A stretch of 64,000 nucleotides of DNA from Octopus vulgaris (lineage: Eukaryota), in assembly GCA_951406725.2 (NCBI GenBank), contig OX597818.1:87544001-87608000 (forward strand), given 5' to 3'. Positions 4,923 through 15,779 of the stretch are shown one piece after another (the stretch's first letter is position 1; every line of letters begins with the position of its first letter). The notes under the pieces are model-generated. The model had not been told where the DNA came from. It made no database searches and saw only the letters and a program-made list of their open reading frames with translations. Position numbers and translations under genes: made by a program.

Positions 4923-4965
<43 letters not shown>

Positions 4966-5040
4966 CGGAGATGTACTTGCATAGTAAGTGACCTGATCTG
5001 AGATCGTGTGTTGGAACGAAAACAATTGCGGCATGGAAGG

Positions 5041-5246
5041 TGTTTCTAAGCCATTTAAGAAACACACAAAAACCGTTAGATTCACTTCAACATTTAAATT
5101 TAATTTGTCAAAATATTTTCGTCGCTTTAAGACCGCGACCTGTTCAATGACAAAACTTCGTGCGACGAAAATATTTTGACAAATTAAATTTAAATGTTGA
5201 AGTGAATCTAACGGTTTTTGTGTGTTTCTTAAATGGCTTATAAACA
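5041..5246. repeat. near-perfect inverted repeat (85-bp arms, 36-nt spacer)
   Basis: 5041-5125 is the reverse complement of 5162-5246 with one mismatch. Confidence 0.9.
5104..5154 (-). ncRNA. type I hammerhead-like motif with variant core (UUGAACA)
   Basis: Minus strand: TTTGTCA-TTGAACA-G-GTCGC(ggtcttaaa)GCGAC-GAAA-ATAT-TT-TGACAAA; 7-bp stem I, 5-bp stem II, palindromic stem III. Confidence 0.55.
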
Positions 5247-5249
5247 GCT

Positions 5250-5686
5250 TGCACGCTTCCCTAATGTAATCGGTAAAACTAAGCACGTGTCTGTCTTGGC
5301 ACAGAAAGCTGGGGTTAGTTTTTCAGATTGCATTTACACTGAACTATTGCACTGATGAAGCCACGGACATTTGAATTATGTAAGTAGTTCTTTTGTTAAA
5401 GGCCGAAACCGAGGTATGCATTTAATTCTGTTTTTTATATAAATTTTCATCTGTCCTGCCCGCCAAATTTGGTTCTGGTGTTCGCTGAATTTTTCCTCTA
5501 GAGAATTTTCTTTGTAGTTTGATCGTTGATGATCTATTTCTAGCATACGGCCGACTACCTAGCAGTCTTGCCCTGCCAATATACACATATATTAGAATTT
5601 TCTCTGACTTCTCAGATTTTTTGTATGCTAGACTACTGGTTTTAAATTGATATTAAAATTAATATTAATTTATCTCCCTCATTATT

Positions 5687-6109: not shown

Positions 6110-6114
<5 letters not shown>

Positions 6115-6500
6115 TCTTTTATTCTTTCATCTGTTTCAGTCATTTTGACTGTGGCCATGCTGGAGCATCACCTTTTAGTCTATGAAATCGACCCCAGCAC
6201 TTATTCTTCGTAACCCGTTACATATACTATCGGTTTCTTTTGTCGAACCGCTAAGTTATGGGGTCCAACATTGGTTGTAAAGCGATGGTGTTAGTGGTGG
6301 TGGGGGACAAACACAAACACACAAGTATATATATATTTATATATACATATATATACGTCGGGTTTATTTCAGTTTCCGTCTACCAAATCCACTCACACGG
6401 CTTTGGTCGGTCCGAGGCTATAGTAGAAGACACTTGCCCAAGGGGTCATGTAGTGGGATCGAACCCGGAACCATGTGGTTTAGAAGCAAGCTTCTTACCA
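6110..6500 (-). mobile_element. SINE family B
   Basis: Homologous to 15401-16098 in reverse orientation. Confidence 0.75.
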
Positions 6501-7020: not shown

Positions 7021-7364
7021 GTTTAAACATTTTATACAATTTAAAAATAAGATGCTGGTCAGTAAGAAAATAAGGAAAGGCGTGTAAAAAAAAAAATGAA
7101 AAAGGTGCAAGAAATGGAACGAAAAACGAGAAACGAAATCAAAAGAATTTAAAAAACTAAGATTCTGGTCTTCCCTAATTGCTGAAATTTAATTAAATAC
7201 AACTGGCTAGCAACTCCTGCTCGTTCCATCTTTTGGATTGATTAATGTAAGTAATATAATATTAATATAAATAATATAATGGGGTGGTTACCGCCCCTGT
7301 CAGTATATGTATATATTTGCGTTCTTCTTAGAGCATTAAGAGTACTTTTACTGTTACATACTTT

Positions 7365-7658
7365 TATACTTTTACTTGTTTCAGTCACCTGCCTGCTGCC
7401 ACGCTGGAGCACCGCCTTTTTCGTCGAGCAAATCGACCCCAGGACTTATTCTTTGTAAGCCTAGTACTTATTCTATCGGTCTCTTTTGCCGAATCGCTAA
7501 GTTACGGGTACGTAAACACACTAGCATCGGTTGTCAAGCGATGTTGGGGGGACGAACACAGACACACAAACATATATATACATATATATGACGGGCTTCT
7601 TTCAGTTTCCGTCTACCAAATCCAGCCACAAGGCTTTGGTCGGTCCGAGGCTACAGTA
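7365..7658 (-). mobile_element. SINE family B (5'-truncated) inserted in an older repeat
   Basis: Family B sequence. The flanks 7285-7350 and 7659-7765 join into a repeat also present, uninterrupted, at 8605-8768. Confidence 0.75.
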
Positions 7659-14740: not shown

Positions 14741-14859
14741 GCTTACGGCTATATCACTTTGAAAGCACCGGTTCTCGTCCGATCACCGAAATTAAGCAAC
14801 GTCGAGCCTAGCTAGTACTTGAATGGGTGACCGCTTGGGACACCTTGGTGCTGTAAGCG
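14741..14859 (+). rRNA. 5S rRNA: 5S rRNA, solitary dispersed copy (probably pseudogene)
   Basis: GCTTACGGCTATATCAC...CCGGTTCTCGTCCGATCACCGAA..TAAGCAACGTCGAGCC..TAGTACTTGAATGGGTGACCGCTTGGGA..GGTGCTGTAAGC. The ends pair (GCTTACGGC/GCTGTAAGC) and a T5 run follows. There are substitutions in box A/C and no tandem array. Confidence 0.9.
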
Positions 14860-15035: not shown

Positions 15036-15098
<63 letters not shown>

Positions 15099-15779
15099 AT
15101 TTAGAGGGCAAGCCACTATGTGGTCGGCCGTATGCTAGAAGTAGATCACCTACGATCAAACTACAAAGAAAAGAATGTTCTCTAGAGGAAAATTCAGCGG
15201 ACACCAGAACGAAAATGCGGGCAAGACAGATGAATATTAGTTTGATCGTAGGTGATCTACTTCTAGCATACGGCCGACCACATAGTAGCTTGCCCTCCAA
15301 ATATACACATGTATTAGAATTTTCTCTGATTTTTCAGATTTTTGTATGCTAGGCTACTGGTCTTAAATTGATGTTAATTAAATTAATATTCAATTTATCA
15401 CAGGAGTGGCTGTGTGGTAAGTAGCTTGCTAACCAACCACATGGTTCCGGGTTCAGTCCCACTGCGTGGCATCTTGGGCAAGTGTCTTCTACTATAGCCC
15501 CGGGCCGACCAAAGCCTTGTGAGTGGATATGGTAGACGGAAACTGAAAGAAGCCCGTCGTATATATGTATATATATGTATGTGTGTGTATGTTTGTGTGT
15601 CTGTGTTTGTCCCCCTAGCATTGCTTGACAACCGATGCTGGTGTGTTTATGTCCCCGTCACTTAGCGGTTCGGCAAAAGAGACCGATAGAATAAGTACTG
15701 GGCTTACAAAGAATAAGTCCCGGGGTCGATTTGCGGTGCTCCAGCATGGCCACAGTCGAATGACTGAAACAAGTAAAAA

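Follow-up and report, generated by a model that had tools for sequence, protein, structure and literature searches.

The window analysed here, a 64,000-nt stretch of the Octopus vulgaris assembly GCA_951406725.2 (contig OX597818.1, positions 87,544,001 to 87,608,000 of the forward strand), carries near its beginning an inverted-repeat hairpin in which a hammerhead motif with an unusual core can be recognised on the minus strand. The features of the region are as follows, in coordinates of the window and, for the motif, with the usual hammerhead numbering:

4930..4962, no strand: (TA)n microsatellite at the 3' junction of the element, the usual insertion context of the family
4963..5163, minus: direct copy of the element 3' end (pLTR piece), with hammerhead, AT-rich spacer, ORF start and tail
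4965..5054, minus: beginning of the element ORF, some 30 codons, at 56 nt past the predicted cut
5031-5125 and 5162-5256: arms of the inverted-repeat hairpin, 95 nt each, 96% complementary, with a 36-nt spacer
5104..5154, minus: type I minimal hammerhead motif, identified by fold, descriptor with shuffles, alignment and covariation
5154-5148/5110-5104, minus: stem I of the motif, 7 bp
5147 to 5141, minus: core of the window copy from N3 to A9, UUGAACA
5147, minus: position 3, U in the window copy, a private mutation (G in 1,813 of the 1,866 family copies counted with C8 fixed)
5142, minus: position 8, C, the family state and pairing partner of G3
5140, minus: extra G of the window copy between A9 and G10.1
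5139-5135/5125-5121, minus: stem II, GUCGC..GCGAC, 5 bp with a 9-nt loop, closed by G10.1-C11.1
5120-5118, minus: GAA of the window copy
5117-5112, minus: stem III of the window copy, palindromic AAUAUU
5111, minus: U17, with the predicted cut between 5111 and 5110
5162..5256, plus: inverted, 5'-truncated second copy, beginning in the 3' strand of stem II and holding the 3' half of the hammerhead only

Judged from its sequence, the hairpin consists of a 3' end (pLTR) from a Nematis-like Penelope-like element (PLE), joined to a 5'-truncated, inverted copy of the same, the direct copy and the inverted stub overlapping by 2 nt (5162-5163). The preliminary description of the locus had proposed a minus-strand hammerhead with a stem I of 7 bp, a stem II of 5 bp, an AATATT stem III and a UUGAACA core, as well as a right arm that duplicates only the 3' half of the motif from GCGACGAAA. 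The fold in all these parts, and the start point and content of the right arm, are confirmed here; the extra G between A9 and G10.1 and the arm ends at 5031 and 5256 were absent from that description. As it stands in the window, the motif has no Watson-Crick pair between positions 3 and 8, which read U·C.

Stems I and II are formed in the minimum free energy (MFE) fold of 5100-5160 (-13.8 kcal/mol, z -1.95), and the motif becomes sequestered once the upstream arm is included in the folding, the long inverted arms dominating the fold of the window copy. A relaxed hammerhead descriptor, in which N3, N7, N8 and N9 were left free, gives one match in the window as against a mean of 0.06 over 100 dinucleotide shuffles, and none of the 100 shuffled windows contains a match with stems I and II together of at least 12 bp. 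The same descriptor matches 3 of 20,000 shuffles of the 61-mer from the window, and in the reversed loci used as a control (711 kb) it finds 12 matches, none of them as strong as the window motif. At gathering score, Rfam reports no hammerhead in the window, its sole report there being a 5S rRNA gene or pseudogene at 14741-14859 (plus strand, 98 bits).

Other repeats lie in the same stretch. A second hammerhead-like motif (5348-5420, plus strand), situated inside an older, different repeat at about 5258-5680, combines a canonical core (CUGAUGA) with a loop II that is long and a stem III that is short; its relatives include a 76%-identical copy elsewhere in the genome (L220) that keeps CUGACGA...GAAA, and partial head-to-head copies at 15092-15399 of the window. 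Additionally, two SINE-like repeat copies interrupted by microsatellites are found at 6111-6425 and 7356-7658.

The earlier recognition of a hammerhead family holds, and its host element, which the preliminary description had left unnamed, can now be given as a PLE whose pLTR carries the motif. The element to which the window copy belongs runs 5' into an ORF with reverse transcriptase (RT) followed by GIY-YIG, seen in frames of 530 aa (L135) and 1,025 aa (L159), in which PF01541 scores above its cut-off and the RT is identified by its YVDD motif and its similarity to the RT of another PLE (E 2e-9), the RVT_1 profile having given no match. In 8 of 8 young ORF-bearing stretches (L159-L166, at 7 places, with frames of 630-1,025 aa) the core and stems of the motif are exact, and loop II differs from that of the subfamily with a 9-nt loop. 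The final 90 nt of the element code for the beginning of the ORF, which in the window copy is broken by a premature stop at codon 3. A pLTR with a hammerhead, a tail of about 55 nt and inverted 5'-truncated copies are all present, as in PLEs. Further, a CX2-5CxxC linker lies close to the GIY-YIG domain with a short spacing resembling the Nematis rows, the Nematis assignment being one made by eye from the spacing of this linker motif and not from a tree with reference RTs.

Most copies of the family are about 150 or 210 nt long and run out into (TA)n or AT-rich DNA; a longer form of the element has 1,109 matches genome-wide. The 125 recorded 3' ends of copies gather at two places downstream of the ATG, 53 of them at 30-39 nt and 62 at 85-94 nt. 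An inverted stub is frequent at the 5' side of the copies, with a junction that is different each time, and many copies are without an inverted arm. The inspected copies are dispersed, solo or head-to-head, and head-to-tail tandem monomers, a trait of non-LTR retrozymes, were not seen among them.

Several other routes to the parent element were tried and rejected. A genome search with RVT_1 listed only strong RT hits, likely of LINE type; a GIY-YIG genome search gave Neptune-like families, one locus of interest (L059) being a chance neighbour of the element; and the clustered copies L095-L098 proved to be carried along in larger duplications, or to be unrelated neighbours, and led to no parent ORF. 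In a set of loci (L069, L078-L082, L092; L095, L096, L098) one hairpin copy of the element rides in a repeat of about 2 kb that has been amplified on its own. The Neptune-like PLE family is itself abundant (L038-L057 and other GIY-YIG loci), with 781-aa frames and U3-A8 minimal hammerheads that have an ACAUGU palindrome (13 matches), and there is one chimera (L100:1-1400) in which the end of a Neptune-like ORF is followed by the 3' region of the present family together with its G3-C8 pLTR. Further hammerhead families, U3-A8 or C3-G8 and with palindromic stems III of 4-8 nt, were noticed at L116, L153, L176, L167, L069 and L164.

Positions 3 and 8 of the hammerhead form a tertiary Watson-Crick pair, which matters only in the active fold. 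From the window alone it had been predicted that the family consensus should read GUGAACA, with G at position 3, and that the window copy is a mutant at this position; the genome-wide counts bear out both predictions. In the 2.8-Gb genome a 33-nt pattern with position 3 free and C8 fixed, a design that places copies with G3 and a changed position 8 outside the count, finds 1,866 copies. Exact matches with G3-C8 make up 1,813 of these, a lower bound because the patterns cover only the subfamily with a 9-nt loop II, and the reversed control gives 0. The other 53 have A (31 copies), U (17, including the window copy) or C (5) at position 3. Both positions are changed in four copies, none of which is C3-G8 or U3-A8. 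Loci fetched regardless of the state of positions 3 and 8, with queries taken from upstream, from the protein or from downstream, supply 60 distinct copies; of these, 57 have G3 and 55 have C8, and U4 G5 A6, A9, G12 A13 A14, A15.1-U16.1, H17 and G10.1-C11.1 are each kept in 53-60. The family does not have the literal C3 and G8 of the classic core, and it does have a Watson-Crick pair between the two positions, in the form G-C.

Contigs from four runs with four other organism labels, taken at 80% likeness, show no variant at 5% or more at positions 3 or 8, the motif variants listed in them concerning loop II, a CpG in stem II or a G·U in stem I. No further G3-C8 family was found among the older, diverged loci L169-L180. 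The expectation that standard searches would overlook such a family is likewise upheld, with no Rfam hammerhead either in the window or, for loci of the family and its sister (L026, L157, L160), within the 150 best of the 211 hits.

The sister in question, a younger family with 1,312-aa frames found by protein search, shares 54% protein identity with the G3-C8 family over 814 aa. Its pLTR contains a homologous hammerhead with C3-G8, placed 101 nt upstream of the ORF start as against 56 nt in the G3-C8 family. The N-terminus of the ORF is similar in the two families, with a peptide score that is reached by 5 of 10,000 shuffles, and an unguided DNA alignment sets the two motifs in register. In this single comparison of two lineages, 5 of 15 named pairs change on both sides, namely two pairs of stem I, a single pair in each of stems II and III, and the 3-8 pair itself (G3-C8/C3-G8), as compared with 0-1 two-sided changes when the structure is slid by 1-3 columns as a control; three outer pairs of stem I fail in the sister motif. 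Conservation of the stems is found both within the family and, as covariation, in the comparison with the sister. Because the sister family and the published motifs carry a pyrimidine at position 3, we infer that G3-C8 is the derived state. At position 9 the sister hammerhead (L157:6385-6432 and L158) also carries C in place of A, which makes it the second unusual core of the clade, and on account of this C the cores in the clade may be relaxed rather than tuned.

The ends of the dispersed copies give some indication of the RNA from which they were made. As the 5' half of the motif is retained in nearly all copies, the family fits uncut RNA as the main template. There are 48 copies in which two non-reference bases immediately precede the predicted 3' product, candidates for copies starting at the cut, which are few beside the 1,813 copies with an intact core. 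Inspection by eye of 30 of the 48 gave 16 clean 5' junctions at the predicted cut, 6 inversions via stem I microhomology and 8 internal changes or a one-locus repeat; at a control site 20 nt downstream of the cut, 8 of 19 were junctions. Normalised by 22 and 17 of 60 intact matches, these become about 26 at the cut and about 10 at the control, an excess of about 2.5-fold obtained with one usable control, classification by hand and junctions having 1-2 nt of microhomology. A lower contig depth 5' of the cut was considered as a sign of cleavage and discarded as an artefact of the reference subfamily. Contigs of runs presumed to be RNA display neither a splice joint nor an accumulation of ends, features that would be invisible in contigs in any case.

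Among the 35 5' junctions listed, AG directly precedes ATGCAGCAC in 19. In 9 of the 19 a G stands where the parent has C or T, which points to a capped start at the common 5' end, the G having been copied from the cap. Alternatively, this common end may be a 3' splice site, the spot resembling a branch point, pyrimidine tract and YAG. One parent sequence (L135:7650-7665) has a branch-point-like ACTAAC, a pyrimidine tract and a YAG that is CAG in older and TAG in the youngest copies.

The predicted structures speak against efficient cutting. The MFE fold of G3 copies extends stem I by a G3·U17 wobble, a possible inactive trap; the AAUAUU duplex alone is predicted to be nearly unstable (-0.2 kcal/mol); and the MFE fold of the dimer exchanges stems I and II and is without stem III. 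In favour of activity, U17 avoids a G3-C17 pair, which has been suggested to lower hammerhead activity, on data not shown there (PMC3884650).

Taken together, the window probably holds a dead-end insertion of a PLE 3' end with an inverted stub, in which the U3 copy is likely inactive, and the G3-C8 motif of the family at large is likely a slow cutter, predicted to need a second copy or the protein of the element. The window copy itself is probably dead because of the U3·C8 mismatch, the sequestration of the motif in the hairpin and the stop in the ORF start. For intact members of the family, transcription would start some 20 nt before stem I, motifs would associate in twos via the palindromic AAUAUU of stem III, and cutting after U17 would take place 56 nt upstream of the start codon of the ORF, at a rate that may be low by analogy with published minimal PLE hammerheads (PMC4209133). 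Reverse transcription, for which uncut RNA would be the usual template, would start at two sites about 30-39 and 85-94 nt into the ORF and would yield the short copies in (TA)n and their inverted 5' stubs. More tentatively, and with somewhat less than even expectation, the wild-type G3-C8 hammerhead may be active in vivo, cutting the capped transcript of the element some 60 nt after its start with the aid of the element protein and leaving footprint copies that begin at the cut, in a clade that explores core variants.

The evidence set out above bears unequally on other explanations of the motif. That the hairpin is a MITE or a miRNA-like structure with a hammerhead likeness arising by chance, as the dominance of the long inverted arms in the window-copy fold might suggest, is hardly credible and largely refuted: the inversion junction varies by copy, an inverted arm is lacking in many copies, the element extends on its 5' side into the RT/GIY-YIG ORF, and a chance likeness is excluded by the shuffle controls and the compensatory changes. 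A fast monomeric ribozyme, stabilised by tertiary contacts of loop II with the flanks of stem I, would be in keeping with a stem I of 7 bp, long in comparison with the 2-6 bp of published minimal motifs (PMC4209133); however, the subfamilies differ in loop II, stem III consists of A-U pairs alone and such a ribozyme would leave few full uncut copies, making this a very improbable account.

A hammerhead-derived fold that does not cleave, and that is kept for protein binding or RT positioning with catalysis dispensable and the swap tolerated, has to be weighed more seriously, although we regard it as rather unlikely. It agrees with copies made mostly from uncut RNA, with the G3·U17 trap and the very weak stem III, and with the C9 of the sister. 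Hammerhead mutants are, further, without effect on PLE insertion in vitro (PMC11167929), by reason of which selection on cleavage may be weak. Against this, U4, G5, A6, G12, A13, A14 and A15.1-U16.1 are common to a family 46% diverged in protein, although loop II and the flanks differ; two transversions have restored a Watson-Crick 3-8 pair, relevant only in an active fold (PMC3088659); and there is the weak excess of copies that begin at the cut. The slow, assisted cutter remains the reading that we prefer.

Neither the class of the ribozyme nor that of the element is changed by these observations, and the copy in the window is a mutated relic. In the single genome at hand, at least 1,800 motifs escape both Rfam and CUGANGA descriptors. 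Should the family cleave, it would provide a natural inverted 3-8 pair of a kind found in the literature searched only as a laboratory rescue mutant, and the occurrence of C3-G8, U3-A8 and G3-C8 families in one genome would amount to an evolutionary confirmation of the tertiary pair. If the active reading is true, PLE hammerheads would be undercounted, because descriptor and Rfam searches miss the core variants of the clade, and the core consensus would be widened to any Watson-Crick 3-8 pair. The family is also suited to testing whether PLE hammerheads are selected for cutting or ride along.

In the family we see a known ribozyme with a conserved variant of its core, carried by a retrotransposon of a known class. 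Apart from the literal C3 and G8, the motif as predicted has the features of minimal type I PLE hammerheads: with those described from metazoan PLEs (Cervera and de la Pena 2014, PMC4209133, in the parts covered here, as for the other papers cited) it shares the location in the pLTR, type I topology, an extra base between 9 and 10.1, G10.1-C11.1, a short palindromic stem III and a UH cut site, and the elements have in common thousands of solo copies and close opposite-strand pairs. Unlike those motifs, the octopus family pairs G3 with C8, none of the 56 rows of Fig. S3 there beginning with GUGA, and base 9a is G in the family as against H in that consensus, with G in 1 of the 56 rows. The element resembles the Nematis type of C-terminal EN+ PLEs (Craig et al. 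2021, PMC8557442) in the order of RT, CX2-5CxxC linker and GIY-YIG with short spacing, and PLEs at large in its pLTR, tail and inverted 5'-truncated copies. It differs in having DKS instead of DKG, the clade being judged by eye, and in a tail of about 55 nt versus the published 30-40 nt.

As to the pair itself, the only compensated 3-8 variant in the covered part of PMC4209133 is the U3-A8 of Cercyon PLEs, natural U3-A8 hammerheads having been published also by Perreault et al. (2011, PMC3088659). The octopus family shares with these a natural compensatory change at 3-8 and differs from them in that the pair is inverted to purine-3/pyrimidine-8, which takes two transversions. A natural G3-C8 pair was not found in the literature searched, where it occurs as an engineered form (PMC11167929, PMC3884650), a provisional result in that Lünse 2017 and supplements could contain the variant; the swap is likewise unmentioned in the passages of PMC6765202, PMC6155905, PMC12192606 and bioRxiv 10.64898/2026.07.22.740005 that were covered. 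The closest parallel is offered by the Poseidon element of Anolis (PAc), in which the engineered C3G/G8C partly restores hammerhead cleavage (Frangieh et al. 2024, PMC11167929). Cleavage by the PAc hammerhead needs the element protein, the uncut RNA is the main template, and the RT starts at two sites inside the ORF start. The octopus family thus resembles the PAc mutant in having the same base swap in a PLE hammerhead together with two RT starts inside the ORF start, and differs from it in that what is there a laboratory mutant of a Poseidon element is here the wild type of a multi-thousand-copy family.
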